From contig CM075988.1 of NCBI GenBank assembly GCA_038087875.1, forward strand, positions 16,122,001 through 16,186,000: DNA of 64,000 nucleotides, written 5' to 3'. Each line of letters starts with the position of its first letter. The first letter of the stretch is position 1. The DNA comes from Malacoraja senta. Taxonomy: Eukaryota. A program made the translations under genes and the position numbers. Of this stretch, positions 7,853-57,622 are shown one piece after another. The notes under the pieces are model-generated. The model saw only the letters and a program-made list of their open reading frames with translations. It did not search any database and was not told where the DNA came from.

Positions 7853-8066
7853 ATGCTCTTCAAGGTGTCGAACCCGGACAGTTTGCACGATCAGAGCAGC
7901 AATGACAGCGGCATCGACGACTGCCTGCGAAGGAGCAAATGGTCTCCTGCGGCCATTCCCAGACAATGCCCGCAACTGAGTCCATCCTCTCCCACCCGGA
8001 CCGTCTCCAAACACTGCAAACGCGGACGAAAGACCACGCCGGACGCAGCAAACAGGATCAGGGCCG
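7853..8066 (+). CDS. Coding exon 1 ([23 protein letters not shown]...NRIRA)
   Basis: ATG at 7853 in a non-repetitive, CpG-richer segment; donor CCG|GTAAGA; phase 1 matches exon 2. No recognisable homology, so less certain. Confidence 0.65.
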
Positions 8067-11000: not shown

Positions 11001-14000
11001 AAGTTTTATGCAAGAGGCAAAGGAGTGTGCTTCTTGAGATAGACATTTGTCGCAGATAGGAGATACATTTGGAAACATTTTGTTCAGTTTAGTATTTGAG
11101 TAATATAGTCTGTGTAGTATTTTAAATTGGATTAGAATATGTCTTACATTAATCGAACAATTATGTATATATAGGAGATATTTTTCCCATCTGTCTTTGG
11201 GGATTTTTAGACTTAATTCCTGTTCCCACTCTCTTCTAATTACATCTGACGATGGAATTTCTATATTTAGAAGGATATTGTACAAGTATGATATTAAATT
11301 ATTTGACTGCGTTTCTATTCATACCTTCATCTAATATATCTGGCAATATATCCGTGGGTATATGTTTTCAAATAGTCTCGAATTTGAAGATATCTAAAAT
11401 ATTGATTACCTTTCAGACTGTATTTCGACTGTAATTTCTGGAATGATAAGAGGTTTCCCATTTCGTACAAATCTCCAACCTTTTTAATTCCTAGTCTTTC
11501 CCAATGAATAAACGTTTTATCTATAATAGATGGTTTGAACGACGGGTTATTAGCTATTGGAGAAAGAAGAGATAGATTTTTTTTTTTAAAATTATAATAA
11601 AGAAGAAAAAGAAAAAGAAATTAGATAATAAAGTATAGAAATATGTGAGATATAGTGTGTGGAAAAGAAAAATAGAAAGTGAAAGAAGAAAGTTAAAGAA
11701 TAGAAAATAGGAAAAAGAGAATAAAAAAAGAAAAAAAAGGAAGAAAAAGAAAAAAGAACTAATGAGATCTTATTTATAATCTTGACCATCCCTCGCCCAG
11801 TCACGAGTTAGCTTTTACAATTGTGTTGCACCATATGATTACAAAAAGACGACAAATGGGGACCAATTCGTTATGAATTGGTCAAATTTATCTATTAGGA
11901 GGAATCGCATTTCCTCAAGATGTGCGGTGTCCAACATACTTGCAATCCACATTTTGAGCGTTGGTATTGGTGTATTTTTCCAAAATTTAAGTATTAATTT
12001 TTTTGCTATTATTAAACCATAATTAAAAAATAATTTTTGAGATGGATTCAATTTATTCCCATCTTCCATTACCCCAAATATAATCAATTCATTATTAGGT
12101 TCCATTTTTATCTTAAATAATTTTGTGAATATTTTGAAAATATCACTCCAAAATCTATAAAGTTTTATACAGGAAACAAAAGAGTGTGTTATAGTTGCAT
12201 CTTGGGTTAAACATTTATCGCAAGTGGGGGATATATTTGGGTAGAATTTATTTAATCTTGTTTTTGAGTAATATAATCTATGTAAAATTTTAAATTGAAT
12301 TAGATTATGTCTTGCATTAATCGAACATTTGAGAATGTATGTCAAATACTTTTCCCATGTAACCTTCGTAATTTTTATCATTAATTCCCATTCCCACTCT
12401 TCTCTAAGTACCTCTGTCGCTGGTAAATCTATATTTAAAATACTATTATATAAATATGATATAAATTTTTGTGTATCAGCTTTAATATTCATTGCTTCTT
12501 CCAATAAATCAGGAGTTATTTTTTGATATCCTTGTATGTATGTCTTCAAGAAATCGCAAATCTGAAGATAATTTTAATTGTTTCCATATTCTTATTGTAT
12601 CCTGTATAATTGGGTTCTTCTTATATATTGTATTGTTCATTTTTTTCGGGGAGAAGAGGATCGTTCCTATATTACAAGGAAAACAATCCTCTTTCTCCAT
12701 TTTTATCCATTCTGTCTGTTGGGTAGAACTATCCAACCAGTACATTATATTCTTAATATGTATTGCCCAATAATAATACAGAAAATTCGGGAGTGAAAGT
12801 CCCCCGACATCTTTTGGTTTACATAAGTGTTCTTTTTTAATTCTATGTGATTTATAATCCAAAACAAAATGAGTAATATTAGAGTTTAATTTTAAAAAAA
12901 AAAATGTTGGTACATATACTGGTATAGACTGAAATAGGTATAATAACTGTGGTAGAAAGATCATTTTTATAGCGTTTATTCTACCTATTAATGATAAAGG
13001 AAGTGTTTTCCAAAATTTAATCATTATATTAAGTTTGTTTATTAAAGGTATAAAATTGGCATTGAATAAAGCTTTATGTTTTCTAGTAATCTGAATACCC
13101 AGATATTTAAATTTTTCTGTTGCTATTTTAAAGGGGAACTTCAGTAAGTGTGTAGATTCTTGAGGTTTTAACGTCATGATTTCACTTTTGTTCCAATTTA
13201 TTCTATATCCAGAAAAGGACCCAAATTCCTCTATTAAGTTTAATAAATTTGGTATGCTCGTTTGTGAGTTTGTTATATATAACAGAATATCGTCTGCATT
13301 TAATGAAATTTTATTATTTGAGTCCCTAGTATTATAATCCTGAATATTCGGATGACTTCTTATACTTTCAGCCAAAGGTTCTATCATAAGGGCGAATAGT
13401 AGGGGTGATAAAGCACATCCCTGCCTATTACCCCTTGATAATTGAAATTTTTGAGATAACATATTATTAGTTAATATTCTTGCCATCGGTTTATCATATA
13501 ATAATTTCACCCATGTAATAAAATTCTCTCCCATATTAAATTTTTGTAATACTTTGTATAAATACTGCCATTCTACCTGATCAAATGCTTTCTCTGCGTC
13601 CAAAGAAATAATTGATATATCTTCTTCCTCCACTTAATGTGAGTACATTATATTAAACAAGCGTCTCAAATTATTAAATGAATATCTTTTGGGTATAAAC
13701 CCCGTTTGATCAGGGTTTATCAATTTACTAATATATTTGCTTAGTCTTCTGGCTAAAGTCTTTGCTAAAATTTTCTGATCTGTATTTAAAAGTGATATAG
13801 CTCTATATGAGCCCGGGTCCTCTAGATCTTTATCTTTTTTTGGAATAAATGTAATAGTTGATTCTGCTAATGTTTCAGGTAGTTTATTTTCTTTAAAAGC
13901 GTGAGTATATAAATTAAATAAATAGGGAGTGGTTATCACATGAAATTTTTTATAAAATTCATTACTAAAACCGTCTGGTGTCTATAAATTTTTTATAAAA

Positions 14001-17000
14001 TTCATTACTAAAACCGTCTGGTGTCTTACCATTTTTCAACGATTTTATTGTTTCACCTATTTCTTCGATTGTAATTTGTGCTCCGAGTTCCTCTTGTTCC
14101 AAAAGGTCAAGTTTTGGAAGATTACAATTATCTAAAAAATTATTAATTTTACTATCTTCTATTTTAGTTTTTGATGTATATAAATGTTGATAAAATTGAG
14201 CAAATCTTTTATTAATATCTTTAGGTAGTATTAGTAATTCACCATTCTCCGATTTAATTTTATTTATGGTATTTTCTTTTTCTTGTTTTTTCAGTTGGCA
14301 CGCTAACAGCTTATGTGGTTTGTCACCAAACTCAAAATGTTCCTGTTTTGTAATTTGGAATAATCTTATTACTCTTGCCGAGAGAATTCGATTAAGTTTA
14401 AATTTCAGTAATATTATCTTATTATGTTTATCTATAGTGGAGTCTTTAGCATTATCTAACTCTAACTGTCTAATTTATTGTTCTAGCAACATTTGTTCTG
14501 TTTTATTCTTTTTATTTTGAAAAATTTTGTATGAAATTATAATTCCTCTAATAAATGCCTTAAAAGTTTCCCATAATAAAGAAGGCGAGGTACCTGGTGT
14601 ATCATTTATCTCAAAAAAAAATTTCATTTGTTGTTTTAAGTATTGATAACCTTGTAAGTCATTTAAAATATTTGTATTAAACCTCCAAAAAAAGTTTTTA
14701 CCCGGCATTCCCTCAAATTTTACTGAAAAAGTCAACGGAGAGTGATCAGAAATACTACTAATGTGGTATGTTGGATTAATTGTATATGGCATTAATTTCA
14801 TATCCACTAAAAAATAATCAATTCTTGAATAAGTTTTATGTACCGAAGAGTAAAACGAGTATTCCCTTCCTACTGGATTAGCAGATCTTCATACATCTGT
14901 TATATTAGTATTTTTTATATATGTATTTAGAAGTTCACTAGTCTTAGATTTTAAATTACTCCTCCTTTGTTTTACTGATTTGTCTAAGTATGGATCTAAA
15001 ACACAGTTGAAGTCCCCCCCTATTATCACATTTTGGTAATTAAACTCTAATATATCTATAATTTTATCAAAAAATTGGGGGTTATCAAAATTCGGAGCGT
15101 AAATATTTATCATAGTTAGTGGGGTTGCATAAATTTCTCCCGAAACTATGATGTACCTTCCCTCTTTATCTGATATAGTGTTCTTTAATTTGAAAGGTAT
15201 ACCTTTTCGAATAAGAATAGCCGTACCTCTAGATTTAGAAGTAAATGACGAATAATATGTTTGACCTATCCACTTCGCCTTTAATCTCATTTGTGTTTGC
15301 TGTTTCATGTGGGTTTCTTGCAAAAAGATTATGTCGCTTTTCAAAGATTTTAGGTGAGCAAAAATGTTACCCCTCTTTATTGGTTCATTGGCACCCCTTA
15401 TATTCCACTACAGAATGTGATTCCTCCATTCTTTATTTGTCTATCGTCTTGCATTATATATCAAAATAGTATTCCTGAATCATATGGTGCAAGCAAATAC
15501 CTCAGAGTTCTGGGTGTTGGGTGGTCATCCCAAGTTTTTAAGTTTATATTACATCTCCTTCTCCAAAAGTACCGTAGATAAAGAAAGAAAAAATGTGATT
15601 TAAAGTTGATTACAAAAAAACTAAGCAAATACAAATTTTTATAGTGATTTTTAAAAAAAAGTGAAGTTAAGGTATCTAAGAAAAGATACCTTAAAGACAA
15701 GTAGCCACCTAAGGTGGCGAAAAATTTATGGACTTCCGTTGGTGTTGTTTTACATTGAACTCCAATCCCTTATTAACACCTCATAAAAAGCTACAGACCG
15801 TCTCATATCTTGTTTATTCTTACTTAAATTTATCAAACTAGCACTAGTAAAAACCAAAAAGACTCAGAGAAAAAATGTTTAAAAAATAAAAAACCAAATA
15901 TAAGACACAACATATTCTCAGTTCTATAAGTATTTATGCCTTTCCAATTTATCTAACCAACTACCATACAAGCAGGTACCGAGGGGTTAAACAAAACCTC
16001 ATTCCTGGATCTTTTCCAAGTTTATGCTGCGCCTAACTCCTTCCCACACAAGAAAAATACGTTAGTAATGTTATAGACATTTTGGTTAATTACTATTTAT
16101 AAGCATATATCATTTATAAGTATATATCAGTAATATTAGTTCATTTCCCTTTTTAAATATATAAAATCATAACTTATACAATCCCATTATTTCTTTCCCC
16201 ACCTCATGGTTTATTCATGATTTATTCATATTTACTACATACACTCACAAATAATTAGTATTATTAAATTTGTTAAATTAGTTGGTTAATTATAATTAGA
16301 ATATAATGGTTAGATATTTTCTTAAATCAACAGTTAGTATTAATATTATCTCGTCCATGTCCCTTATACATTCCTTCATTACTTCTGTATCTTCAACGTC
16401 CTTTTGTTTATCTTTGAGCTTTTCATTCAAGGTGAAACATGGACAATGTTCTCAAATACACATTCCAGACAGATAAGCTCGGTAACTGTCTGGAAAAATC
16501 CACCATCTTAGCCAGTTCAAAACTCTATCTTAAAAGTTAAGAAATGCAATCTTCCTCCTCCTCGACATCTTCTTCCGATGTTTTCGATGCTTTTCTTACG
16601 ATATCTTCTGCATACTTAAAAGCTTTTTCGGGATCCATAAATGAGCGCTCAGTTCCGTTGTAAGTAATTTTCATTTTTGCTGGATAGACCACCCCATATC
16701 TGACATGAGGTATTCCTCTCAGTATGTTTCTTGTCTGTGTAAACAAGTTCCTTCTCTGGACGACCTCCGGAGGATAATTACGGAAAAATCGAATATTATC
16801 CCCACCATATATCAAATTCTCCCCATGGACAATCTTATTCAGTATAAATTCCACTGAAGAGATGTCGAGAAATTTCACAATTATCTGTCTTGGAGCAGCA
16901 TTTATGTCTCTTGAGACACGTCCAACTCGGTGAACGATATCTATTCTTGATTCTTCCGGCAGTTTAAAAACATCTTTGAGTAAGTCAGCAACGAAAGTAC

Positions 17001-20000: not shown

Positions 20001-23000
20001 TGGGGCAAGTGGTATAGATTAAGATGCGGCAGTGAGAGTTGTCTGCTTGGAAGACAAGAGAGGTGGATAAGAAGGAGATGATGAGGATGGCAGGGGAAGA
20101 CCTGTGGAGTGTGGAGGCCAGAAGATGAAAGACTAGAGGCCAAGTCGCCGAATGTTTTTAAGAATGAGATAGTGAGACATATTCTGGGACACGAAAAACT
20201 TTGTTAAGATATGGGGAGAAAGTTGGATTGTGGTACTAAACTGGAGGATCAACTATGAACGGCAGAACAGGCCTGAAGGGCCGAGTGGCCTGCTCCAGCT
20301 CCTGTCTGCCTATGTTTCTATGAACGACTGGACATAATAGTTTGATGAGCTGGTTTCAAAAAGAGAAGGGAGCAGTGGTATAGTGGTTAAAAGGAGGTTA
20401 TCATAAAAATGCCTGAACTAATTATCCAAAGACATGAGTTTAATGCTCACCGGAGCAGCTGTGCAATTAATTAAGCAAATCTTTGGAATTAAAAATCCAT
20501 GGGCCAGCATTCAATTCTTTGAAGTCAGTGCTCAGTTGGATTAAATACGTGACAAAAATATGAATTTCCAGAGTCCACATTTTCAGTTCATTATCAACCC
20601 CTTGGATACCTCTAATGCATTTCATAATTAATGTTAATTCCTAACTGGATTTTATTTCATAACCAGATGAGTCTGAAACTATTCAGATGCTCACTTCTGC
20701 TATACATCACGAGAGAAGATTCTTAATATTACCACTGTGCAGGAGGTAATTTTATTTCAACATTCAAAGGTTTTTTAATGAGGTGCAAATAATAAGCAGG
20801 CAAATAACTTTTCTGCACGAATATATATTAACTTTGATGCTAACATAAATTATTGTTAGCTAGTATAATTCGATTAATATTGGCAACACGGACATTTTAG
20901 GTTATTAGAACTGCACCAAAATTCGCGGCTTTTTTGTAAAATTAAACGTTCTTTTTTCCTTAGGCACAAATAATCAAAGTAATTTAGAATCCCAAAAGAT
21001 GTACCTTGGAGTCAGAGTTCGTCTGCCAGTCCGAGATCTTCTCCACAATTATCGCAAAGCCAGAGGAGAAGACCCCAAATCCAACCAGGTACAACATAGG
21101 CACCATTCCAGCTGCACTTCAAGTCCATGTTTGAGGGATGTATTCATCAGACATGGGAGCAGAAGTGGGCCATTTGGCCCATCGATTCTACTCCGCCATT
21201 CAATCATGGCTGATCTGTGTTTCCCTGTCATCCCATTCTCCTGCCTTCTCCCCATAACCCTTGACACCCTTACTAATCAAGTGTCTGTCAATCCCTGCTT
21301 TAAAAATACCCAAGGAAGTGCATAAACTTGAGCTTTTAAATTACCACTTTGAAACAGTGAATGTTGGTGTGAAATGTAACATAGACAGGAAAAAGTGTTT
21401 AGAGATACAGCATGGAAACAGGCACTTTGGCCCCGCCGACCATCAATCACTTCCACCATTTCCATGTTATTCCACTTTAGCACCCACTCTCTATGTATTC
21501 GGGGCATTTTACAGAGGCTAATTAACCTACAAACCTGCATGTCGTTGGGATGTGGGAGGAAACTGGTGTGCTAGGACGAAACCCATGCGGTCACAGGGAG
21601 AGCGTGCATACTCTGCACAGACAGCACCCGAGGTCAGGATCGAACCTGTGATGCTGGCATTGTGAGGCAGCTGCTCTACCTCTTACCAATTATGTTATCA
21701 GATTGTCTTGACAATATTTTCCTGATAGTGATAAGGAATTTCAAATACTTAAAGTTTAGTCATTCAGAGTTTAACTTTTGTTTGAAGTGGGGATGATTAA
21801 AGGTATTGTGTTTCTTTCCCTACAGGCAGATGTGGCCTGCAAATTGAATAATGGTAAGCGATTCCGTTTATTACTGGAATCTACCTAGTTTTGTTTTATA
21901 GTATTTATGAGTGTGTCTATTGTATTTTTTGCTGGCTTTATTTCAGAAAGAAGACGTGTTGTCAAGGATTTGATGCATAGTCGTCCATGTTCTGCTAAAG
22001 GGAGCAAACAGGTAAGGACTCTGTAGCTCCTAGAATATGCAGCCTCGACACGTCTAGATGGGGCTGAGGCCCCATCTCATCCTTTGTTAGCGCCCCAGCC
22101 AGATCCCTTCCACCAATGTATTCATTCACCTGGCTGAACTTATTCACACTTTAAAAATGCTCTCTTTCAGCTCCACTCGCTTTCACCAGATCCACATTCA
22201 CGCTCACATGCACCCACGCTATTTCCTGATTTTATACGGGGTACCTGGAACAATCCTTGTTTCAGTCCCTCTTGGGCCTCTTCCCCCAACTATTTTTCCG
22301 GTACATTGATCACTATGTTGACACTTCTTCCTGTGGACATACAGAACTCAAAAATGTCATCAGTTTGATGCCACTTTCCACCCTACTTCCACCTCTGACT
22401 CTTCCCATCTCTTTCTGCATCTTTTCATCACCTTCTCAGGGGATAGATGAGCAGCATACATCCATTACAAGGTCACTGACTACAGCCCACAGTGTCTACA
22501 GCCATACTTCCCTGCACCCTTCCTCTTGTAAAGGCTCCCTTCCATCTCCCAGTTCCCAAGTCACAGTCCAATCTGGTCTGGTGATGAGATTTTCCTCATT
22601 GATGCCTCTGAGTTAACTTAGTTCTTCCTGAACCAGGACGACCCACCTACCATAATTGACAAAGCCTTTGACTGCCTCTCGCCCCTCTCCATTTGGGAAG
22701 AAGAGATGGAGAGTTTACTTTGCACCAATCTTTTCATTCAATGGATCACTTCCCACGACTTCCATCTCCTTCGATGAGATTCCAGAACCAGACACATCGT
22801 CCTCTTCATCATTCTGAAGACTGTTCCCTTTGCAATCCTCAAGTTCATTCTTTCATCTCCCATGCAATCACAGGAAACGCAACACCTGTCCTTGTACCCG
22901 TTCCCTTCCCACCACTCAGGGACCCAAACAGTCCTTGCAAGTGAAACAGTAAACCGCTTTCATTTCTTCCAAACCAGTTGGTTTGTATTCAGTGCTCACA

Positions 23001-26000
23001 GTGTGACTTCCTCTATACTGGACAAATTAAATGCGGATTGGGGTGCCCGCTTTGTGGAACCCCAGCGTTCAGTCAGCAGTGGTGACCCAGAGCTTCCAGA
23101 TGCCTGTCACTTGACCTCCTTTCCACTCTCACTCGGACGTGTACATGGTCTACAGCACTGTTGTAATGAAGCCTCATCTTCCACCAAGATGTGTGGCAAC
23201 TTTCCAGATTCAATATAGATTTCAACAACATCAGCTGACTCCACCTGTTTGTTTCTAGCGAACTGGCCAATTCATCTGTTGATTATTCTGCGGTATTCAA
23301 TTCTGTTTTTCTCTCTCAATTAAACCTGCTGGGCATTTCCTTCAGTCTGACTGCATTTCACATTTGCAAGTCCCTGTGTTCCCTGTCCACTTGCCTTTAT
23401 TAATCTATCAACTAGGTATCTTCATCAGCAGTGTTTCTATTGGGCAACCCTGTCCTCACCCCACCAGAGATATTCCCTTTGTTGTTAAGGGGCTGTCCCA
23501 CTGCGGCAACCTAATCTACGAGTTTAGAAGAGTTTGCCCTCGACTCAAACTCGCAGCATGGTCGACACGTGGTCCTAGGAGGTCCTATGAGATCACTGGA
23601 TTGCTCGAGGGAAGTTCCCACATACTCGCGGCCTCAGTTTGGTCAAGGAAAGTTTTTCAGCATGTTGAAAAAATCTCCGCGAGTAAAAATTGGTCAGCAT
23701 GGTTCTTTTGAATTCGTAGTGCAGTGGAGTGGGGTCGCTATGTAGTTACAGGCAGTCGAGGGCAGCCGTAGGCAATCTCCTTTGCTGACCGGGCATTTTA
23801 ATTGGCTCATTGGAGTTTTCAGGACCAAGGAAAACCGACGGGTGATTTAAATGCCCCCCCCCTTCTCTCCCCTTCTGCTTTTGTGTGTATGTGCGTGTGT
23901 GCGTGTGTGCGTGTGTGCGTGCGTGCGTGACTCTCTCTCTCTCTCTCTCAATCCAGCCCGAGGTTTTCCAGGCGAGTGCCCTCGAGCTTGAAGGTCAAAG
24001 ACAGTCGCTGAAAGGTTGCGTCAGTGGGACAGGCCCTTTACAATCCCTCTCCATCCTCTCTGCAACCTCAATAACTTATTTATTTCTCTTTCACAATTCT
24101 GCCAGACTTCAGCCTGAAACGTTAACCCTGTTACTCTTTCCACAGATGCTGACCGAGCTGCTAAGTGTTTCCAGCATTTTCTGTTTTCTCTGATTGCCAG
24201 CATTAGTAATGTTGGTTTGACTTTTCAGAAGAGAATTAGTGGTAGCTGCACACTTTTGCCTTTGCCTAGGGAATGTTATCATGTTATATTTAATGGAAAT
24301 GATACCACTTCTAGTTTAGTTTAGAGATGCAGCATGGAAACGGGCCCTTCGGCCCACTGAATCCATGCTGACCAGCAATCATCCGTACACTCGTTCTATG
24401 TTATCTCAGTTTTGTATCCTACATATTAGGTGCAATTTACAGAAGTCAATTAACCTACAAACCTGCACATCTTTGTAACGTGGCAGGAAACCGGTGCAAA
24501 CTGAGAAAACCCACGTGGTCACAATGACAACTTGCAAACTCCACACAGACAGCACCCACGGTCAGGATCAAACCCAGTCTCTGGCGCTGTGAGGCTGCAA
24601 CTCTACCGCGTAAAGGACTTCCTTCTGTCAGTGTCGTTTGTGAGTCAATCAGTTGGGTTTTGATGATAGCGCAATGGTTTTAAATTTAAAAAAGAGGTAA
24701 AAGCTGGAAATGCTCAGCAGGTCCGGCAGCATTTGTTGAGAGAAAACCAGCAACAACACTACCCTTCATCAGAAAGTTAAATTACCTATTTTATACTATT
24801 TTTCACATTTCTTTGAAGTTAAATATAAATGTTTCACTTACCCTGGTGGGATTTGAATCCATGCTTTATGGTGTTATGGGAAATGCCAAAAGCAATGGGT
24901 TATTTCTCATTTGTGTTAATAATATCATGATTGTATTCCTCATTTTGCTAAAGACATCTTCAAATCTTTGACTCTGGCAGCTTTCCCGAATCAATATGTG
25001 GCTTCTTCTCTTGCTTGCCTTTCCAGAGAACAAAGATAAATGTTTGGCCGCCAAGAAATTTTGAAGATCTGTTTGAAGATTTGGTGGAGGTTCTGGAGAC
25101 GGATCTGAAGCAAGGTGGGCCATGCCCCCTTCAGGGGCAGATTGGAGTGGATTGTCCACCGAGGTGTTACATGGGCTGTCCCGTCTGCCTCAGAGACTTG
25201 CACTCCAGAAACCAACGCCCCCCTGCTCTCCAAACTGAAGACGCTCACCCAGACCTGGTATCTCCATCTCACAAACCCTATTCAGGTTCAGAATGTGAGT
25301 TTTGGCACGGTTCACCTGGCGGGTTGGTAGCCTTTGGAGGTGAATGCTGTGTCAACATGGCTGATGAAGTGAGACCCTTCAGTCATCATCACTGCTATTC
25401 CCAGAACACCAAGCATCAATCTCATCCTCATTCTCCGTCGTCGGAGGCTAAAGAATTTGGTCAGGCTGCATTGAGTATTGTCCACAGCTGCAAACGGACT
25501 CGGGGTGAACCTAACGGCAACACTGGAAGCTCGGTGTTGTCCTTCTTCCAGTTTCAACTGCAGCAACTCGAGGGTAGCCTCGCCGCCCTGTCGGCTGAAG
25601 ACATTCTGTCCGTCGACAAGAACGGCAACACGTGAGTTGAGCATCCATGGAAGCTTACAGCATAGAAACAGGCCCTTCTGCCCAACTTGCCCACACTGGC
25701 CAACATGTCCCATCTACACCTACCATCTACACTAGTCCCACCTACCTGCATTTGGCCCATATTCCCTAAACCTGACCTATTCATGTACCTGTCTAAATGC
25801 TTCTTAAACCTTACGATAGTACCCGCCTCAACTACCTCCTCCAGCAGCTGGTTCCATACACCTACCACCCTTTGCGTGAAAAAGTTACCCCTCGGCTTCC
25901 TATTAAATCTACCCCCTAAACCTATGTCCTCTGGTTCTCGCTTCCCCTACTCTGGGCAAGAGACTCACGATCTATTCCCCTCATGATTTTATACACCTCA

Positions 26001-29000
26001 AAAAGACCACTCCATCATCAACTTGCTCCGGTGTTATTGCAGAGGACAGACCCTAATGGCAAAAAGAGAATGAATGACTAAATCCTTCAGTTCAGAAGCC
26101 CATTTGACCCATTCAAAGTACAAATCAATAAAAGTGCAGCAAAAAATAGTTTTAGTTAATTTATTGTCACGTGTACAGTGAAAAGTTGTTGTTACATGCC
26201 AACCAATAGAGTTCTAACAAAGAGAGATGGCTCGAACAAAATTGTTGTTTTGCCTAGTGCAAAGATTATTTTAATGGATATTATTGATAATGAATATTAC
26301 ATTTGAATGCCAGAATCATTTGTGAATATTAATTTATCCATGCCATGTAGATTAATATAGTTTTGTCTAATGTGAATTTTAGAATACATACTTTTTGACA
26401 TTGCATTGTACATTTAGCACAGATAGGCCAAAAGGGCAATTTTTGTATTTAGACTAAGGTCATCTCCCTTGTTCTGTTGTCATGTGACATAGAACAGTAC
26501 AGCACAAGCACAGGCTCTTTGGCCCGCAATGTCTATGCCGACATGATGCCAAACCCAACTCTTATCTGCCTGCACATAATCCATATCCCTCCGTTCCCTG
26601 CATATCCATATGTCTATCCAAAAGTATTTTAGCTGCCACTATCAGGCCTCTCAGCCACCAACCCCAGCACATGTTCCAGCACTTGCCAACCTCTATGTAA
26701 AAATAAAATGCCTTGCACATCTTGTTTAATCTTTGACTCTCTCACCTTAAAACCATGCCCTCTTGTACTATATCTTTCCATCTTGGGGAAAAGGTTCCGA
26801 CTGTCTACCCTATCGATGCCTCTCATAATCTTATATACATCTATCAGGTCTCCATGAAACCTCCAGTCTTCCTGAGAAACACCGGAGGTCCTACAATGAA
26901 ATGTGGTTAGCTGATTTTCATTGGATAAGTGCCTTGTTCATTTGCCATGTTAAGTTTTTCCACGGAAGGCACTAGTGGGGAACCTTTGCTTGCCATCAGC
27001 ATTCATGGAAACTGAGGGGCAAAGTACTTCAGAGAAATCACCCCAGCTTTCTATGCCTGCTATCCCATGAAAATCCAAAGACAAACCACAGACGGCACAG
27101 TGGTACAGCTGGTAGAGCCACTGCCCCACTGCGCCAGAGACAAAGGTTCAATCCTGACCACGGGTGATGTCTGTGTGGAGTTTGCATGTTCCCCCCTGTG
27201 ATTGCGTGAGTTTCCTCCGTGTGCTTCAGTTTCCTCCTGCAGCCCAAAGACATGCAGATTTTTGAGTTCATTGGCCTCTGTAAATTACCCCCAAGTGCGT
27301 AGGGAGTTGATGAGAAAGTGGGATAACATAGAACTAGTGTGAAAGGATCAATGTGTAGGAAGGAACTTGGAACTGCAAATGCTAGTTTACACCAAAGATA
27401 GACACGAAATGCTGGAGTAACTCAGCGGGACAGGCAGCATCTCTGGATAGAAGGAATGGGTGATGTTTCAGCCAAGACCATGCTTAATAGTCAGGTGGGC
27501 TGAAGGGCCTGTTTTCACGCTGTATCTCTGAACTAAACTATACTAAGGATTTTGTTTGGGAACACGTACAGTTTCTTCCTGATTAAATGACCAGTGTGGG
27601 AAAATACAGTGTTGCATTGTGAGAGTTCCAAGTAATAGGTATAGTTCAGAACACTGTAAATAAGCACACATTGGATGTATTACATTTCTTCCAGGAAGGC
27701 CAACCCATTGTATGTTTTTATCTTTGAACACTGGAGATAAATTGAATACAATGCTTCAGCTAACATTTAATATAGTCTCAGTGATAAGAATGAAGTACGG
27801 CTGTAGTTTGTTTCACAAGATGAATTTAGCACTGCATTTCAAAAATACATTTTGTTTGCAAAACAGGTCATTTTTCTACAGTTTAGTTATCATTGGAATT
27901 TATGTACAAATTGCAGATAAAACTAATTTGGTTAGATTATTGAATGCTTACTTCTATGCTTTGCAGCCTTGCTAACAGACTGTCCGTTATTTATTCTGAT
28001 AGATTGCTTCATTGTGCTGTCATTCAGGGAAAGAGAGCACACACTTACAGCTTAGCCTGTAGGATGTCCGACATGAATAGAATTGACACAAAGGATTCCA
28101 GTGGTCAAGTGAGTAAAAACGTTTTTGGAAATTTCTGTCACATTGTAGTTTACCTTCCCAGAATTATCTTCTGGGCTCCCTATTTATGGATGTCTTTGTG
28201 GTAAATTAAATAAATACATAGAAAAAATAACTAATCCGTGAAGTCTTAACTACATCGTGAATTTTAGAGTATGCTTTATTCCCAAAGTAGACGCCACAAA
28301 TTAACTGTAGTAGTTCTTGCAAACTGAAACTTATTGCAATCTAATACTCGGCTTCAATCTGCACTGACAATGTTTAGAAAGAGCTGCACATTGTTATATG
28401 CCCCCAATTTTTAAAGTTTTATGAAAAATAGAATGAGACCATGTATCTTGAGAGTCGTGACGGGAAGCTAGTTTCCACACATCACATTATCAATTTCACC
28501 TTGTCAAAATAAAAGAGAGCTGCTGGAGGAACTCAGCGGGTCAGGCGGCAACTGTGGAGGCAAATTTCCAAGGTATGCAAAGAGTCACCACACAAAGGGT
28601 GGAGACTACGTTACAAAGTATCCTGTGCCAGGTCCTCCTTTGTTGTCCCCTTCTCCCCTCCAACCCCACCTTCCTCGTCCCCCCACGCCGTGCCCTCCTT
28701 TGTCGTCCCTCCCACCCTCTCCCCACACCAGGTCTTCTTTTGTTCTTCCCTCCCCTTGTGGCGTATCCATGTAACCTTAAGTTGTTGACACCTGCAGGAA
28801 CTTTATGGTGAAAATATATCAATTGTTGTAAAGCTCTGCATGAGAGGGCACTGAAACTATATGTCTTTAATAGGGAGTAGTTGGAATGGAAACTCCTGAG
28901 AGGAGAGGGTGATTTAGAGTTCCTAATGTAGTAATTCTGCTCTTTTTGCCTGCACAGACTGCTTTACACTTGGCTGCTGAACGAAACCAGCACCTGATGG

Positions 29001-32000
29001 TCAACGATCTTATTTCACTCGGAGCTCAGATCAATGAAAGAGACTTTTTAGGGAGGACTCCTATCCACTTGTGTGCAGAGAATGGGTTTCTCCGAGTATT
29101 GCAGGTATGTCAAGAGGAAGTTGGTGCTTAAATGCTGGGCCTTGGGCAAACTTCACATCTATTGATTACTCGCTGTCCCTGATGTGTTAATCCAATAATT
29201 GATCATTGCAGGTAATAGAGAGGACCCTGAAAAATGGAACAGACGTTGACATTGATGCCAGGGACAACAATTGTAAGTTTTATTTTTTTAGTAGTGGGTA
29301 TATGGAATGAGCTGCAGGAGGAGGTAGTTGAGGCAGGTAGTATAACAATATTTAAAAGACATTTGGACAGGTGCATGGATAGGAAATGTTTAGAGATATG
29401 GGCCAAACGCAGGCAGCTGAGACTGGTGCAGATGGGGCATCTTGATCAGCACGGGCAAATTGGGCCGAAGGACCAGATTCCATGCTGTTTGACTCTATGG
29501 CCCTATCTTTAGTGGTAGTAATTTCTCGTGAGCCTGGATTAGATTTACTACTGTGTTGATTGCTATAAACATGTGTAGTACATCCATGAATGGGATAAAT
29601 GTGTGCGCAACCATTTCTCCCAGTATTCTGTTTCTCCACCCCCCCCCCCCCCTCCACCTAAGTCCCTCCCTCTGGTTTCACATCTCACTTCTCTCTCCTT
29701 ATCTTACACCCTTTGGTTCACTTTCCAGCTTTCTCCCCCTACTATAACCTAAAGCATTACTTATCCATGTTCTTCAGAGATGCTTTCTGACTTGCTGAGT
29801 TACTCCAGCACTTTGTTTTTTTTTTGTAAACCAGAATGTACAGTTCCATTTGTCTACATGTAAGTGTGACTATGTTTAGCAACTGTGTGTGACTAGCTGT
29901 TGCCTTTGGTCTACAGGCCTTACCCCATTGCACTATGTAGTGTTGGCTCACATTGCAACAGTAAAGGAGTTTGAGAACTTGGGGAAGGACAGCGACATGC
30001 TGAGGTTCCTGGAGCTGAGGAAGGAGCAGCTCCTAGATGGAATGAAAAGCCTGCTGAGGATGGGATCTTCTCTCTCCATGCAGGTATGACAGGTACCACA
30101 TTGTTCCATTTTAACCAAGAGTTGGCAGAACATTATTGCCCTGAATTCTATGGAAGTAAATTATCACTGAATTAACATTGGAAACATAGAAACATAGAAA
30201 ATAGGTGCAGGAGGAGGCCATTCGACCCTTCGAGCCAGCACCGCCATTCATTGTATTCATGGCTGATCGTCCCTTATCAATAACCCGTGCCTGCCAGAGC
30301 AAGAACTATATCAATTTATAATTGATATATAAATCTCTATAATGATTGCTTTTTAACAGCACATTTTGTATTTGCATCTCCCGTAATTTACACATTATGA
30401 ATAAATAGTAGCTTGCCAGCTGCAAAGCAGTACATATGAGTAGCACCTTGTATTTTGACAAGGTGTCTTAAGATGCTTCATAGGAATATACAGACCTAAG
30501 TTGACATGGTTAAGACTGAAAAACTAGGTTAAATAGGTAGCTTTTTAGGAGTTCTCCAAAGGATTGGGACCTGGTGAGAATTGTCCCACAGCCTAGTGGA
30601 CGACCCGGGATCCATAAGTGAAATGCTGGTACCCTATTGGAAATCCGGCCAGCACCCTTGGCACAGGAAGTGAGAGATAAAGGGGAAATAAATGAAGGAC
30701 TTCAAAATTAGTTGCAATTAAGAATTTAAAGAACGTCACTCATCTGAATGATATCTTCTGTTCATTTCCTCAAGGATATAAATGGACGTAGGGCCATTGA
30801 CTTTGCAGAGGAAGAGAATGACACTGAAGTTCTGAATTTCCTTTGTAATCATGTTGAGAAGATGAAAACCCTTTCCCACAAGGTACACTGCATTCAATAA
30901 AACCAAATGAAGTGTGCTTGATTAATTTTAATGCCATAATTTAGCTAACAGTTTGTGTTGTCTCAAGCTCAGTATTTTAATAATTATCATGATTACAGAA
31001 TGTTTTTACCAATAGTTGAGTAAGAGCTATTCAAATGGCTGTATGGTAACTCAAATTTCACTACACGCATGTGACAATAAATGTGAACTTGAACTTGAGT
31101 TACATATTCTTAAATGTAAGGTACATAGATTGGTAATATACAATCACCAAAAAATAGACCCTCAGGCTTTGAATCAGGTTATCTGACCCAGCCATCTAAT
31201 ACCACATCGCTTCACTTTCCACACAGCCCTGAGAGAGTAGAAGTAATAGCGACCTTGCAAAAAAGGGCTCATTTAGAGCCGTAATCAGAGAATCAGGCCT
31301 TGCAGAAAAGAGCTGTTCAGCCCACCATGGCCTTGATCATCATGTACCTTTCCATATTAATCCTACTCACCAGCACATGATCTTGTAGCTTTCTATACCT
31401 CGGTGAGAAGTCATTCATTTAACTGAATTGTGTAAGCAATATATCAGTCAAAACATGACCTGCATATTGCTGTTTGAAACAATGACAGAATGTACAGTAG
31501 ATCCCTCTTCAGTCAGAGTCAAGTTAACGAAGATGTTTTACAAAGTTGGTCTAAAGAAGGGTCCTGACCCAAAATATCACCTGTCCATGTTCTCCAGAGA
31601 TGTTGCCTGACCTGCTGAGTTACTCCAGCACGATAAGATTTTTGAACAAAAAGCTCCCATGTGCCCAATCTTTCACATGGAGCTATATTTCCTCTCGCTT
31701 TTATTAAATGAAAGGATTGATCTCCCAGATTTGGGTGAAGGTGTGCACAATCTTGTTACACTTAACTTTGTGCAAGACTAGTTGCAGGGAATCCAGGTGT
31801 TAACAACTCATTTGTACCAACATTTATATCAAACGCACCCAGCCCATTTGAAGCTGAATAGTTTGTCTCAACCTGCCAGGAATTGTGCAAGGGTTTGAAG
31901 AATGCTGCCAAGGCATTTTCAGAACAATGTGTTGGGTTGGAAGATTGCAACCTTCACGAGGTCCGCCCTGTTTCGACGATTGCAATCAACCTGGCGTGCA

Positions 32001-33981
32001 CAATCAAATAAGATCAAATAGAACAAGTTGTTCTACAACTTTAGGCTGTGCACGCCATACGCAAGAAGAAGAACAATGTGTTGAAGGACTGGCACTTACA
32101 ACCTCATACCTGGGAGAGTTTGTCCTGATAGTGGAATACTCATTTCATTCACTGAGGAGCCATTATTTTCTATGAAAGATGGAAGAGGACATTTGCGCAC
32201 ACAGAAGCAACAAGCAATATGGATGTGGGCTGAGATCATGGTCTTTCCATATTTCCTATATTGTGCAAGAACAAATAAACAACAAAGAAAACACGGTTTT
32301 GGGGGGAATTTTACAAATAATAAGAGACAACAAGGGAAAAGACATATTTTCATTTCCAGTCTTGTTTCTATGGTCTGTTTTAAATCCTAAAATTATTATT
32401 TTTATTCTAAAAATTGTACATAACAGCTTTCAGAAAATCTTAAATTATTTCTTTGACCCCTGAAATTATTTGTTAAACCAAGGTAGTTGCCCTGCTGCTT
32501 GTGGGCAGGCTAAAGGGGCTGTCCCACTGCGGCGATCTAATCTGCGAGTTTAGAAGACTTTGCCCTCGACTCAAACTCGCAGCATGGTCGACACGTGGTC
32601 CTAGGAGGTCCTATGAGGTCACTGGACCTCTCCTTCATGCTCGAGGGAAGTTCCCGCATACTCACGGCCTCAGTTTGGTCGAGGAAAAATGTTCAGCATG
32701 TTGAAAAATTTTCCACGAGTAAAAATTGGTCGGCATGGTTCTTTTGAACTCGTAGTGCAGTGGAGTGGGGTTGCTATGTAGTTACAGGCAGTCGAGGACA
32801 GCCGTAGGCATCTCCTTATCTAACCGGGCATTTAAATTGGTTCATTGGAGATTTCAGGACCAAGGAAAACCAACCGGTAATGTAAAAAGCCCGCTAAACT
32901 TTATTATAAGTTGTCTGGATTCTTAAACGTGTCTCCACTCTTTCTCCCCCCCCCTTCTCCCCCCCCTTCTCCCCCCCCCCTTCTTCCCCCCCCCTTCTCT
33001 CCCCCCCCCCTTCTCTCCCCCCCCCTTCTCTCCCCCCCCCCTTCTCTCCCCCCCCCCTTCTCTCCCCCCCCCCTTCTCTCCCCCCCCCCTTCTCTCCCCC
33101 CCCCCTTCTCTCCCCCCCCCCTTCTCTCCCCCCCCCCTTCTCTCCCCCCCCCCTTCTCTCCCCCCCCCCTTCTCCCCCCCCCCCTTCTCCCCCCCCTTCT
33201 CCCCCCCCCCCCTTCTCCCCCCCCTTCTCCCCCCCCCTTCTCCCCCCCCCCTTCTCTCCCCCCCTTCTCTCCCCCCCCCTTCTCCCCCCCCCTTCTCCCC
33301 CCCCTTCTTCCCCCCCCCTGCCCGCGCTCTCTAAAGGACTTACCGTACACTGTGCAGCCGTCTTTTACCTTTCTGTTCATCGCGGGTGTAAATTTCAGAC
33401 AGCGCTCCCCCGCTTTCCCTGGCCCCCGCCTTTGCGATGTATTTGTGTGTGTGTGTGCGCGGTCGGTCGATCCAGCTCGCGGTTTCATCGCTGACGGTCG
33501 ATCCAGCTCGAGGTTTTCCAGGCAAGTGCCCTCGAGCTTGAAGATCGAAGACAGTCACTGAAAGGTCGCGTCAGTGGGACAGGCCCTGTAACATTTGATA
33601 ACTGGTGAATTTCCAAAAGGACGTTGAACAAGCCACAAAAGTGCTGGAGTAACTCAGCAGGACAGGCCGTGTCTCTGGAGAATATGGATAGGTTACGTCT
33701 TAGGTCAGGACTCTTCTTCAGACATGCCACAGTTGTGTTATTGTGTTCTTAGCATATCTATTGGGATTGAATTTCTACCCAATCTGTGTCTATACAGTAG
33801 AATATAAAATATATAATACATAAATACAAATCAGTAAAATGACTTGTTCTTCTTTGTATCTCTAAAGGATCATGGCTTGTGTGCAACACTCAGTCCAATA
33901 AATCAGAAAGCAGAGTTATTCTCAATGGCCCCTGAGCTGCCTCCTTGCAAAAATTACAAGCAGCCCAGCAATGTGCCATGA
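7853..33981 (+). CDS. nfkbiz-like: Spliced gene for an IkB-zeta/IkBNS-family protein (OCA peptide + truncated ankyrin domain), 11 coding exons, 579 aa
   Basis: Exons 7853-8066, 20964-21088, 21826-21853, 21947-22011, 25027-25631, 28003-28108, 28958-29104, 29212-29272, 29917-30083, 30775-30882 and 33868-33981 join in frame (1740 nt) across GT-AG introns. Peptides match human IkB-zeta as recalled: [31 protein letters not shown] ~ [48 protein letters not shown] ~ NQHLIVQDLVNIGAQVN. Ortholog versus paralog is not resolved. Confidence 0.88.
8110..8632. mobile_element. Penelope-like element fragments in inverted arrangement
   Basis: Terminal repeat on - strand, then + strand [23 protein letters not shown], a PLE RT-thumb region. 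Confidence 0.7.
10286..11572 (-). mobile_element. Older L1-clade LINE, 3' part (5' part at 18397-18685), split by the L1 at 11580-18389
   Basis: ORFs 10675-10929 and 10926-11285; T-rich tail ~10286-10320; the LKLRNLSL-coding sequence rejoins across the insertion. Confidence 0.9.
13943..14026. repeat. 41-bp tandem duplication inside L1 element A ORF2
   Basis: AAATTTTTTATAAAATTCATTACTAAAACCGTCTGGTGTCT occurs twice, 43-bp period. Confidence 0.85.
17496..18100. mobile_element. CpG-rich PIF/Harbinger-type MITE inserted in L1 ORF1
   Basis: Imperfect ~40-bp TIRs (AAGGCCTGTCTCAC..TGCGGTCATTGGCGG / CCGCCGATGACCGCA..GTAAGACAGAGCCT); TAA TSD at 17493-17495 and 18101-18103. Confidence 0.82.
18397..18685 (-). 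mobile_element. 5' remnant of the older L1 split by element A
   Basis: [37 protein letters not shown] in ORF 18529-18831. Confidence 0.88.
19100..19217. repeat. AT-rich low-complexity tract
   Basis: Degenerate (TATAA/ATATT)n. Confidence 0.8.
20964..21088 (+). CDS. Coding exon 2 with OCA peptide ([23 protein letters not shown])
   Basis: Acceptor ttttttccttag, donor CAG|GTACAA. Motif resembles OCA-B YQGVRVKEPVKELLRRKRG and IkB-zeta FQGVRVKNSVKELLLHIR. Confidence 0.9.
21826..21853 (+). CDS. Coding exon 3 (28-nt micro-exon, ADVACKLNN)
   Basis: Acceptor tttctttccctacag, donor ATG|GTAAGC; phase 0 in, phase 1 out, which bridges exons 2 and 4. Confidence 0.75.
21947..22011 (+). CDS. Coding exon 4 ([22 protein letters not shown]; basic, possible part of an NLS)
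   Basis: Acceptor tttatttcag, donor CAG|GTAAGG; phase 1 in, phase 0 out. Confidence 0.78.
22200..23230 (+). mobile_element. Decayed Penelope-like element (RT and GIY-YIG remnants)
   Basis: YLEQSLFQS...LFFRYIDH (a YIDD variant), then a remnant of the GIY-YIG region ending ARFVEP. Confidence 0.7.
23488..24037 (+). mobile_element. PIF/Harbinger-type MITE, copy 1
   Basis: TIRs AGGGGCTGTCCCACTG / CAGTGGGACAGGCCCT; TTA TSD at 23485-23487 and 24038-24040. Confidence 0.9.
25027..25631 (+). CDS. Coding exon 5 (large linker exon ending in the pre-ankyrin helix ...[31 protein letters not shown])
   Basis: Lies within ORF 25015-25635; acceptor cttgcctttccag, donor AC|GTGAGT; the last ~30 aa are IkB-zeta-like. 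Confidence 0.9.
28003..28108 (+). CDS. Coding exon 6, ankyrin repeat 1 ([35 protein letters not shown])
   Basis: Acceptor ttattctgatag, donor CAA|GTGAGT; resembles IkB-zeta FLHIAVAQGRRALSYVLARKMNALHMLDIKEHNGQ. Confidence 0.93.
28958..29104 (+). CDS. Coding exon 7, ankyrin repeats 2-3 ([49 protein letters not shown])
   Basis: TALH and TPIH ankyrin motifs; acceptor tgcctgcacag, donor CAG|GTATGT. Confidence 0.95.
29212..29272 (+). CDS. Coding exon 8 ([20 protein letters not shown])
   Basis: Acceptor cattgcag, donor T|GTAAGT; phase 0 in, phase 1 out; corresponds to IkB-zeta ...VDLEATNYD. Confidence 0.88.
29917..30083 (+). CDS. Coding exon 9, ankyrin repeat 4 with the nuclear-IkB insertion ([18 protein letters not shown]...[18 protein letters not shown])
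   Basis: Resembles IkB-zeta GLTPLHCAVIAHNAVVHEL...SLVDTIKCLIQMGAAVEAK; acceptor ggtctacag, donor CAG|GTATGA. Confidence 0.93.
30775..30882 (+). CDS. Coding exon 10, degenerate ankyrin repeat 5 ([36 protein letters not shown])
   Basis: Acceptor catttcctcaag, donor AAG|GTACAC; resembles IkB-zeta [25 protein letters not shown]. Confidence 0.85.
32514..33587 (+). mobile_element. PIF/Harbinger-type MITE, copy 2, with internal expanded pyrimidine tract
   Basis: Same TIRs and internal sequence as copy 1; TAA on the left, GTAA on the right. Confidence 0.9.
32939..33318. repeat. Pure C/T minisatellite, approximately (C7-10TTCT[CT])n
   Basis: ~380 bp with only C and T on the + strand; G-run array on the - strand. 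Confidence 0.95.
33868..33981 (+). CDS. Coding exon 11, non-ankyrin C-terminal tail and stop ([10 protein letters not shown]...KQPSNVP*)
   Basis: Acceptor ttctttgtatctctaaag, open in phase 0, TGA at 33979-33981, strong donor G|GTGAGT at 33983. Confidence 0.7.
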   Translation, partial: DHGLCATLSPINQKAELFSMAPELPPCKNYKQPSNVP

Positions 33982-34440
33982 GGTGAGTGAGACCCTGTAC
34001 AAACACCATTTTCTTTATAAACAACAGAAACTCCTTTTAAATTGTTGCAGCTGATTTTAAAGTCTGAAACATTCATTCTTGTGCTGCTCACAAAGTGGTG
34101 AAAGAAATTAAATATGGTTATTTTTCCTTATAGGAACTCGTGAAGATTTGAGAGATGCTCAAGGAGTCGATAAGTAAACGTCACTGTGAATCTGAGCTGC
34201 GGCTGACACCAAAGCCTAGGCCTTTTTGGGATGGACACATGGAGGGGTGAAGACCTAATGGTTAAGTTATAGGATCAGCAGACTGAATTCTGGCCATTTT
34301 ATCCAGTAGATGTGAATCCCACCTTGGCAACTGCAAATTCAAGTAATTTGGAACTTGCAAAAGAAAACTATTCTCAGATATTGTAATCATGAAACGTTTA
34401 AATGATTGCAAAAGCTTCTCCGTATAACTATTGATAGAGA

Positions 34441-34574
34441 CAAAATGCTGGAGTAACTCGGCGGGACAGGCAGCATCTCTGGATAGAAGGAATGGGTGAA
34501 GTTTTGGGTCGAGACCCTTCTTCAGACTGAATGCAAAGATGCTGCCTGTCCCGCGGAGTTATTCCAGCATTTTG
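34441..34574. repeat. Inverted pair of Penelope terminal repeats (38-bp arms)
   Basis: 34441-34478 versus the reverse complement of 34537-34574 match at 36/38. Confidence 0.88.
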
Positions 34575-35349
34575 TGTGTATCTTCAGTTTAAACCAGCAT
34601 CTGCAGTTCCTTCCTACAACATTTTGTCTGTATAATGATTGTTCTTTAGTGGAAGAAATCTGCCAATATTCCCCTCCCTGTATATATGACACCTCAAAAC
34701 TGTCAATGCAATGGACTCCTCATTTATCATTTCAAAGCTCCATTAGGGACGGACAATACATACTAAAATTGCTCTGAATGTTCACAACTGGTGAATGAGT
34801 AAACTCCAAATCAGTCATTGAACTCCAAATCATTGTGAATAACACCTGAATGGCAGTAAAATCATGTTTTGTATAAAACTGAGCATTAACATAAATAAAC
34901 GAAAATCCAAAAATGAACACAAGTATATTGGATGCATTCTAAACTTTGACTAACACATTTTGTGTGACTTTTGCATAATTGCATTTTTGAAGACATCAAT
35001 TCAGTGCAAGAATTTACTTTCCTTCAGCACAACTCAGAATATTAAAAATGCAACCAGGATTAACAGAGTTGCAGTTAGTACAGAACTGAGAAGTCCCCAA
35101 CAGATTTGGAAATCAAAATTGTTATGTTGAAGATTCTTTGACAAATTATTTACTTGGATTAAATATTTCACTTTTGCAGTTGGATGTGACATATGTTTAA
35201 CAGATACCTCTATAATATGTGTTGCCAACCCGACTAAACTGAGCTATGAGGAAAAGTTGATCATAATGATGACTTGTATTGCCTTCTGGTTACCAATGTG
35301 TCAAATTAGTATGTTTTATCATGTAAGAAAATGTGATTGTTTTGAAAAC

Positions 35350-57544: not shown

Positions 57545-57545
57545 C

Positions 57546-57622
<77 letters not shown>
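57545..57622. repeat. (CA)n microsatellite at the truncated end of MITE copy 3
   Basis: ~38 CA units. Confidence 0.95.

Follow-up and report, generated by a model that had tools for sequence, protein, structure and literature searches.

What kind of gene encodes an IkBzeta-like protein that stops short of the last ankyrin repeats, and what could such a protein do? The question arises from a locus of the skate Malacoraja senta that lies in a 64,000-nt stretch of contig CM075988.1 (hereafter the window). A predicted model of 11 exons on the plus strand (Table 1) reproduces the 579-aa protein following IkBzeta through ANK1-4 that the original prediction had described: AG/GT signals flank all 10 introns, the phases match, and the translation comprises 579 aa followed by a stop. 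In Leucoraja, the database model for the orthologous gene spans 11 of 11 window exons, with 73-96% identity in separately scored pieces and 46% for a single match covering two small exons plus the intervening intron. The part of the window that precedes the start codon showed no kB-site or octamer pattern.

Table 1 Features of the gene model, in window coordinates
Feature	Position	Strand	Basis or remark
Coding exon 1 (start codon; residues 1-72)	7853..8066	+	86% identity to Leucoraja model
Exon 2, bears OCA peptide	20964..21088	+	Gene model, Leucoraja model, PDB matches
OCA peptide, residues 83-102 (OCA-T1 positions 11-30)	20996..21055	+	PDB matches, family patterns; position tolerance from available part of PMC12755459
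Exon 3 (28 nt)	21826..21853	+	Gene model; kept in shark and ray models
Exon 4, opens with basic cluster RRR (21949-21957), candidate nuclear localisation signal	21947..22011	+	
Exon 5: acidic helix, poorly conserved linker, N-capping helix, ANK1 start	25027..25631	+	
Acidic amphipathic helix specific to the family, residues 156-172; possibly an activation or partner-binding motif	25060..25110	+	
N-terminal capping helix, equivalent of IkBzeta 417-429	25540..25581	+	Role from PMC11293385
Exon 6, ANK1 (106 nt)	28003..28108	+	
Exon 7, ANK2 and ANK3 (147 nt)	28958..29104	+	
Exon 8, ANK3 end and linker	29212..29272	+	
Exon 9, ANK4 with IkBzeta-type helical insertion	29917..30083	+	
Exon 10, degenerate ANK5, still models as repeat	30775..30882	+	Helices 533-539 and 543 onward in orthologue structure model
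Exon 11, 37-aa tail and TGA stop (33979-33981), then GT donor	33868..33982 (coding 33868-33981)	+	
Probable last exon, 3' UTR in window	34134..34899	+	5' limit set by acceptor and Leucoraja model end; 3' limit tentative, set at first AATAAA/ATTAAA hexamer

Almost certainly, the window gene is intact and orthologous to zgc:113279, an ancient paralogue that is sister to NFKBIZ, has been retained in jawed vertebrates other than mammals and, in their common ancestor, already had no ankyrin repeat beyond ANK5 (in many teleosts, none beyond ANK4). Direct orthologues are filed as zgc:113279, 'NF-kappa-B inhibitor zeta-like' or 'OCA domain-containing protein' (XP_055516685.1, Leucoraja; XP_032905423.1, Amblyraja), of which the Leucoraja model has the same exons, is 94% identical over ANK1-4 and differs only in the last 15-20 residues. 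A tree of 64 ANK1-4 sequences separated this family from NFKBIZ with a UFB of 100, and branching within the zgc:113279 clade was roughly congruent with the species tree. The window sequence fell outside the NFKBIZ clade, as sister to the Leucoraja model within the batoids; a 1:1 NFKBIZ grouping was not obtained, and an AU test rejected grouping it with skate NFKBIZ (p-AU 1.8e-94, dlnL 321). The tree has no true outgroup, so that the order of duplication is unrooted, and it contains neither NFKBID nor BCL3, for which no named sequence was retrieved.

The zgc:113279 group occurs in sharks, rays, chimaera, ray-finned fish, coelacanth, lungfish, amphibians, reptiles and birds, with no match among the mammals sampled, and 17 species carry both an orthologue and a true NFKBIZ. 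The neighbour that models from turtle, alligator and the bird clade fuse onto the downstream end sits ~53 kb downstream on the same strand in the skate. Together, the trees, the two-gene species and the common downstream neighbour support a separate paralogue, as the original prediction of a further nuclear IkB with no human counterpart had it. Database entries for the family are uncharacterised and often mislabelled NFKBIZ. A literature search, with subscription papers and supplements outside its scope, found no paper on zgc:113279 or on an ankyrin-bearing POU2AF1, and the gene is apparently unstudied.

On the skate chromosome, a CUB+Frizzled gene and then a collagen+C1q gene lie just upstream; one class-2 POU gene, CBL, an APP-family gene, POU2AF1 and POU2AF2 are also present. 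This chromosome presumably matches human 11q23-25, and we infer that the window gene arose there as a whole-genome-duplication copy of NFKBIZ. Full-length frog, basking shark, sawfish and skate queries located no full-length NFKBIZ in the assembly, and NXPE3 could not guide us to it because the large NXPE family swamps the search. We do not take this as evidence that the skate has lost NFKBIZ: an L24e family search of the assembly returned RSL24D1 only and no RPL24, NFKB1 was not among the RHD matches examined, CBL and class-2 POU genes each came up just once, and three other skates (Amblyraja, Leucoraja and Rhinoraja) have NFKBIZ, which renders the negative search here uninformative. Elsewhere on the same chromosome (C12:23.1 Mb), the genomic sequence reads from POU2AF1/OCA-B exons into a complete domain of seven ankyrins without a change of frame. 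An assignment of this ankyrin gene as plain NFKBID was dropped, as Pfam identifies its upstream exons as POU2AF1; a search for a second copy of its ANK6-7 exon found none.

The missing C-terminal repeats are a property of the family rather than of the window gene alone, judging from its sequences. With an ANK6-7 HMM, 0 of 98 zgc:113279 family proteins scored above 8.7 bits, versus 152 of 152 NFKBIZ proteins above 40 bits, and none of 11,501 six-frame ORFs in the window plus 100 kb on each side (264 kb, reaching up to and past the next gene) held such an exon (best 6.5 bits; positive-control exon, 74.7 bits). Repeats in the window protein thus number five at most, compared with seven in nuclear IkB proteins, and its ANK5 shows the degenerate residues originally described. 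That the truncation is a gene-model artefact, or the gene a decaying copy, is very improbable. The splice junctions were predicted from sequence, the last 15-20 residues differ among skates, and several database models end at the ANK4 exon, as such a reading would have it; against this, the frame is open across 11 exons, ANK6-7 is missing throughout the relatives and the region searched, and a 317-aa protein found only in Logan is encoded without a break, from the N-helix through to a tail that is not ankyrin, on a contig of 1,339 bases, pointing to a spliced transcript in a squamate-clade member.

The original prediction also held that the ANK6 exon had been replaced by an unrelated 37-aa tail and a stop. 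For this species, 'unrelated' fits. However, when tail starts from 17 orthologues were compared with the ANK6 exon start, the best score fell at offset 0 of 19 (column-permutation p=0.023), a weak hint that the tail exon may be an eroded ANK6 exon. Nor does this exon probably end at the stop: a GT donor lies one base past it, and the acceptor at 34134 yields the Leucoraja model end in the Leucoraja frame, which would place the stop 1 nt before the last junction. The tail is also conserved in sawfish and Mobula models, and its variable end among skates reflects a frame shift in the Leucoraja model and an earlier stop in the window.

At the other end of the protein, the OCA peptide is retained, as predicted. 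Only three PDB entries matched exon 2 at E<=10, and each was an OCA peptide (POU2AF3, POU2AF2 and POU2AF1); with E values of 0.06-0.66, these matches are weak by themselves. Across 75 tabulated family matches, Y13, G15, V16, V18, K/R19 and L26 were invariant (75/75), R17 and R30 each occurred in 73, and position 25 was always L, M or I. The available part of an OCA-T1 scan (PMC12755459) reports that K19 tolerates only R, that L25, L26 and R30 are intolerant and that K29Y is functional; the window peptide carries R19, L25, L26, Y29 and R30, and so, at the level of sequence, keeps every residue reported as mutation-intolerant. Its sole departure from the motif is at Q14, a position that is L, V, M, I or A in 75/75 family rows versus Q in 134/139 NFKBIZ sequences; skate POU2AF1 likewise has L here. 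Although 22 of 98 family models gave no OCA match at 10 bits, most are N-terminally short or alternative-start models, an account that leaves out Anolis, Callorhinchus, Narcine, Heptranchias and Pristiophorus.

Activation does not follow from an intact OCA peptide: catfish OCA-B, whose sequence is binding-competent, failed to activate and reportedly has no working activation domain (accessible text of PMC13043367). The window protein might accordingly be a decoy that occupies POU2F on octamer DNA without activating, in competition with OCA-B, OCA-T1/2 or IkBzeta. We regard this as unlikely: while the catfish case and a linker that is poorly conserved and strongly shortened in teleosts speak in its favour, the acidic helix pattern recurs in 60 of 73 family proteins, as would be expected of an activation or cofactor-binding motif. 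A structure model of the sawfish orthologue places a helix at 153-170, and we consider the acidic helix a candidate transactivation or cofactor-binding motif.

How far the ankyrin repeats still engage NF-kB was assessed at the p50-NLS contacts of IkBzeta, namely D441, D443, E477, H478, R514 and E569 (PMC11293385; the printed 'Asp411' was read as Asp441). The window has D, N, D, S, R and E at these positions, i.e. two contacts lost, one changed and three kept. D443 is retained in 1/37 family rows versus 26/26 NFKBIZ sequences and H478 in 0/37 versus 25/26; D445 is never D in the 37 rows. Conversely, D441 is kept in 34/37, a basic residue (K/R) at 514 in 37/37 and E569 in 29/37, and position 477 is acidic or amide (D 31, N 6). 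The conserved ANK1 aspartate, human D441 (mouse D451), called essential for p50 binding in the available portion of PMC11393961, corresponds to D341 of the window protein. The orthologue structure model has a pLDDT of about 89-98 over residues 341-560, and its best structural match is 9BOR (Z 25.8, rmsd 2.0 A over 223 residues, IkBzeta 415-640). Among the RHD matches examined in the skate genome no p50 sequence was found, nor was a p52 NLS exon within the 40 kb searched.

Survival of D441, 514, E569 and 477, together with conservation of ANK1-4 since the jawed-vertebrate ancestor, means that binding to p50/p52 may persist. ANK1-4 could then still hold the p50/p52 NLS, making the protein a dual NF-kB/POU bridge like IkBzeta, or a dominant-negative p50 competitor that forms no promoter complex, which we consider possible if rather doubtful. 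The IkBzeta specificity contacts sit on ANK1-3 and the ANK4 insertion (PMC11293385), which remain as folds in the model, and ANK7 of IkBzeta clashes with kB DNA (PMC11293385), so that a protein without it could still form a complex on DNA. On the other hand, D443, H478 and D445 are lost family-wide, both p50 chains touch the repeat stack, so that losing ANK6-7 should cost interface, and the title of Kohda 2016 states that N- and C-terminal repeats are both needed for an active complex. Residue by residue, the sequence is compatible with the POU-coactivator, NF-kB-uncoupled and dominant-negative readings offered originally, though 'NF-kB-uncoupled' may overstate the case, as several p50 contacts survive.

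The best explanation, to which we give somewhat better than even chances, is that the protein is mainly a POU2F cofactor whose N-helix and ANK1-5 fold yet are weakly coupled to NF-kB. The basic cluster would bring it into the nucleus, where the OCA peptide would dock on POU2F1/2/3 at octamer DNA, like OCA-B and IkBzeta, and the acidic helix would recruit co-regulators. The N-helix and ANK1-5 would fold like IkBzeta but, without D443, H478 and ANK6-7, would no longer form the high-affinity, DNA-bound complex with p50, and may persist because they tether NF-kB weakly or bind another partner.

More broadly, our results suggest that OCA coactivators and IkBzeta-type proteins belong to a single family in which ankyrins have been lost repeatedly. 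On balance, we lean towards a single OCA-linker-seven-ankyrin ancestor of IkBzeta, zgc:113279 and POU2AF1/OCA-B that bridged POU2F and NF-kB. Its ankyrins would be complete in NFKBIZ and, on the genomic reading, in skate POU2AF1; zgc:113279 would have been reduced to five repeats from sharks to birds and to four in many teleosts, and mammalian OCA-B would have lost them all, its C-terminus being what is left of the N-helix and the start of ANK1. If true, zgc:113279 is an intermediate that still exists, and it counts as a fifth coactivator of the OCA type, which mammals lost; taken together with the skate POU2AF1 locus that carries ankyrins, it suggests concretely where the OCA coactivators of B cells and tuft cells came from. 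Its product would join both the nuclear IkB set, given as three seven-repeat proteins in the available text of a published IkB phylogeny (PMC3553144), and the OCA set, of which the PROSITE paper (PMC12807641, as far as accessible) names four. As a natural separation-of-function variant, it could reveal which IkBzeta outputs need POU2F and which p50. Because it occurs in zebrafish-type, amphibian and bird models, often under the NFKBIZ label, the two may be mixed up in immunological data from fish and poultry.

Compared with known systems, the window protein shares with IkBzeta (NFKBIZ, 9BOR) the OCA peptide, basic cluster, N-capping helix and ANK1-5 with the ANK4 insertion, at 41-42% identity over ANK1-4. 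It differs in lacking ANK6-7, in its degenerate ANK5, in the loss of D443, D445 and H478 and in the hydrophobic residue replacing Q14; its family further stands apart by its own acidic helix, a separate clade and chromosome, and absence from the mammals sampled. Like IkBNS (NFKBID) and BCL3, it falls among the nuclear IkB proteins that conserve the ANK1 aspartate (available portion of PMC11393961), whereas those two have seven repeats (PMC3553144, available text). With POU2AF1/OCA-B, POU2AF2/OCA-T1 and POU2AF3/OCA-T2 it has in common an OCA peptide with all reported critical residues and, for the first two, the chromosome. The characterised mammalian POU2AF1-3 have no ankyrin domain, the word 'ankyrin' occurring 0 times in the accessible text of PMC13043367, and outside the OCA peptide the window protein matches no POU2AF1-3 Pfam family.

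The gene in the window encodes a 579-aa protein in 11 exons with AG/GT borders and agreeing phases, ending at a stop codon at 33981. We infer the exon joins from conservation, and a Leucoraja database model covers all 11 exons; in protein searches the nearest relatives of the window's proteins were skate proteins. The frame of the 37-aa tail is the same in sawfish and Mobula models, which both extend 7 residues beyond the window's stop, and judged by these models the tail is real. The GT donor 1 base past the stop, with an acceptor at 34134, points to a further non-coding exon. Transcripts with a stop this near the last junction are expected to escape nonsense-mediated decay, as this one therefore should. 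Among skates, the final 15-20 residues seem free of constraint: the tail exon shifts frame in the Leucoraja model and meets an early stop in the window. One LINE-like element sits in intron 1 in minus orientation, and two of three copies of a simple-repeat-bearing interspersed element also lie within introns of the gene.

A search with the large exon brought up 10 proteins, exclusively of sharks and rays; the horn-shark protein among them in turn retrieved 54, comprising 46 members of one family and 8 unrelated ankyrin proteins. The 46, named zgc:113279, NFKBIZ-like or uncharacterised in databases, come from chimaera, bichir, bowfin, teleosts, coelacanth, lungfish, caecilian, frog, turtles, alligator and birds; no mammal was among the 54. 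Salamanders, lizards and python joined through a profile search over 1.84 billion representatives (best 150 matches considered), for which 20 unnamed family-side or neighbouring rows were identified individually and the remainder placed by a quick tree, none falling outside groups already found. The mammalian absence thus reflects searches without a hit and does not prove loss. A separate search recovered true NFKBIZ (120 of 436 matches listed), and among the matches listed at least 17 species carry both genes: the cartilaginous Cetorhinus, Carcharodon, Mustelus, Heterodontus, Rhincodon, Pristiophorus, Heptranchias, Pristis, Narcine, Amblyraja, Leucoraja and Callorhinchus, as well as Latimeria, Protopterus, Chrysemys, Alligator and Sphaerodactylus. 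Together with this co-occurrence, an unrooted tree of 64 sequences and 192 columns (37 family, 26 NFKBIZ and one other, chosen among the stored sequences so as to span the taxa), which split family from NFKBIZ with a UFB of 100, and an AU test on 27 of the 64 sequences, which rejected a grouping of the window gene with skate NFKBIZ, bear out the original prediction of a separate paralogue rather than the NFKBIZ orthologue. Mean identity was 39% between the groups, 53% inside the family and 72% inside NFKBIZ; the family paralogue thus evolves faster.

When all 346 stored proteins were assigned by their ANK1-4 scores, 98 fell in the family and 152 in NFKBIZ, counts that include isoforms and fragments, the entries not being independent. 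ANK6-7 was carried by none of the former and all of the latter, and an NFKBIZ ANK6-7 HMM found no match among 11,501 ORFs in 264 kb (best 6.5 bits; control exon, 74.7 bits), in agreement with the predicted loss of the C-terminal repeats; the downstream gene begins about 53 kb past the window gene. Judged from these proteins, the truncation is ancestral in the family. That it is an artefact of modelling, or the gene a copy in decay, is very improbable. Many teleost models end 7-16 residues past ANK4. In bichir, bowfin and caecilian the first tail residues align to the ANK6 start, and over the 17 of 37 rows with an alignable tail offset 0 was the best of 19 (p=0.023, column permutation), the rows being related and the register seeded by the alignment; the window's own tail scored -8.2. 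The tail might conceivably be an eroded ANK6 exon.

An AlphaFold2 model of the sawfish orthologue, 82% identical to the window protein over the ankyrin region, shows the N-helix and five repeats with confidence, besides the OCA helix and an acidic helix standing on its own, and matches the IkBzeta structure 9BOR across IkBzeta 415-640. The p50 contacts (human IkBzeta numbering), taken from the accessible part of PMC11293385, were mapped via the macaque sequence: the window retains D441, R514 and E569, and D443, E477 and H478 are replaced by N, D and S. Among 37 family rows, D441 is kept in 34, E569 in 29, R514 in 3 (K in 34), D443 in 1, and E477 (D in 31) and H478 in none. The binding face is changed rather than erased, for which reason retained p50 binding, in line with the three contacts kept in the window, is still a live if unlikely rival.

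In the OCA peptide (OCA-T1 numbering) the window keeps Y13, G15, V16, R17, V18, V22, L25, L26 and R30. According to the available portion of PMC12755459, whose OCA-T1 structure and mutational scan served as reference, R, as found here, is the sole change tolerated at position 19; Y at 29, likewise present, is functional, and position 20 (L here) is free. An OCA HMM made from NFKBIZ only reached the 10-bit cut-off in 76 of the 98 family proteins; the 75 tabulated are conserved as in the window, a hydrophobic residue at position 14 being the sole family-wide departure, and the other 22 are mostly, though not all, short or alternative-start models. We lean towards a protein that would enter the nucleus, dock on POU2F and activate through its acidic helix, with p50 coupling weakened. 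That the peptide instead makes it a POU decoy is doubtful, more so than retained p50 binding.

Two genes upstream, one CUB+Frizzled and one collagen+C1q, we take to be MFRP and C1QTNF5, and the same chromosome (C12) carries a class-2 POU gene, CBL, an APP-family gene, POU2AF1, POU2AF2 and an ANKK1-like ORF. The human position of this whole set is presumably 11q23-25, a region we assume to be paralogous to that of NFKBIZ. The accessible part of PMC13043367 places the human POU2AF cluster on chromosome 11. Bird models, including duck, lie on 7-10 Mb contigs, fitting a microchromosome. We infer that the family arose by whole-genome duplication; the tree is unrooted. Skate, turtle and alligator, as well as a bird-clade model, share the downstream gene directly behind the family gene; annotators fused the pair in the turtle, alligator and bird-clade models, in which it has no Pfam match. 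Searches of the assembly found neither NFKBIZ, RPL24 and NFKB1 nor a second CBL or additional class-2 POU genes, and an APP-like gene is placed on a small scaffold; whole regions seem to be missing from its searchable part. NXPE-family genes are greatly expanded over more than 30 small contigs, most copies with a 273-aa open exon 55-59% identical to turtle NXPE3.

At the POU2AF1 locus, Pfam PD-C2-AF1 matches three exons (34.8, 89 and 76.6 bits), and in the last of these the match runs to profile position 237 of 249 at the exon's last codon. This exon closes with a phase-2 GT donor, through which six more exons follow without a stop, yielding ANK1-7, a complete IkB-type domain. Ankyrin exon sizes of 106 and 147 recur in the window gene; over ANK1-4 the domain is 35% identical to the window gene and 40% to NFKBIZ. 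Among 3,483 ORFs in 100 kb the best, if weak (7.3 bits), match to the N-helix/ANK1 start was this last PD-C2-AF1 exon itself, so the search found no start of their own for the ankyrin exons. If the donor is read through, the product has a short end resembling that of OCA-B. On this genomic reading of one genome, OCA-B of the skate may combine an OCA peptide with ankyrin repeats. A pattern search saw no POU2AF3 OCA exon between POU2AF2 and this locus; the near-identical translations there point to either an inverted duplication or an artefact of assembly. The conger eel NFKBIZ model matches PD-C2-AF1 weakly (residues 86-199, E 0.003), as do other NFKBIZ N-termini. Such matches hint at a kinship of NFKBIZ and OCA-B beyond the peptide.

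Features on chromosome C12 and in the window (window positions where so marked)
Feature	Position	Strand	Content
Window	C12:16,122,001-16,186,000		Part of 1.94-Gb assembly
Tail exon and sequence behind it	window 33868-34150		Compared with Leucoraja model
LINE-like fragments	window 349-999		ORF1-like, endonuclease and reverse-transcriptase-like pieces among the three stretches (by eye)
	window 11842-17307	-	
	window 43462-48675	+	
Interspersed element, three copies	window about 23,480-24,020; 32,510-33,590; 57,500-58,100		Simple-repeat interiors
Downstream gene	C12:16,208,747 to at least 16,255,737	+	Large, multi-exon, uncharacterised
POU2AF2	C12:22,975,694-23,014,364	+	Own OCA exon; tail to tail with POU2AF1-ankyrin locus
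Near-identical translations	C12:about 23,049,000-23,071,000	opposite strands	Between POU2AF2 and POU2AF1
POU2AF1-ankyrin locus	C12:23,086,698-23,136,450	-	PD-C2-AF1 exons and ankyrin exons

No description of the family gene was found in the main texts of the literature searched, and it goes unnamed in the accessible parts of PMC3553144, PMC12807641, PMC11393961, PMC10299181 and PMC13043367. The window gene is already represented in databases, and is a further variant of the IkBzeta/OCA type.
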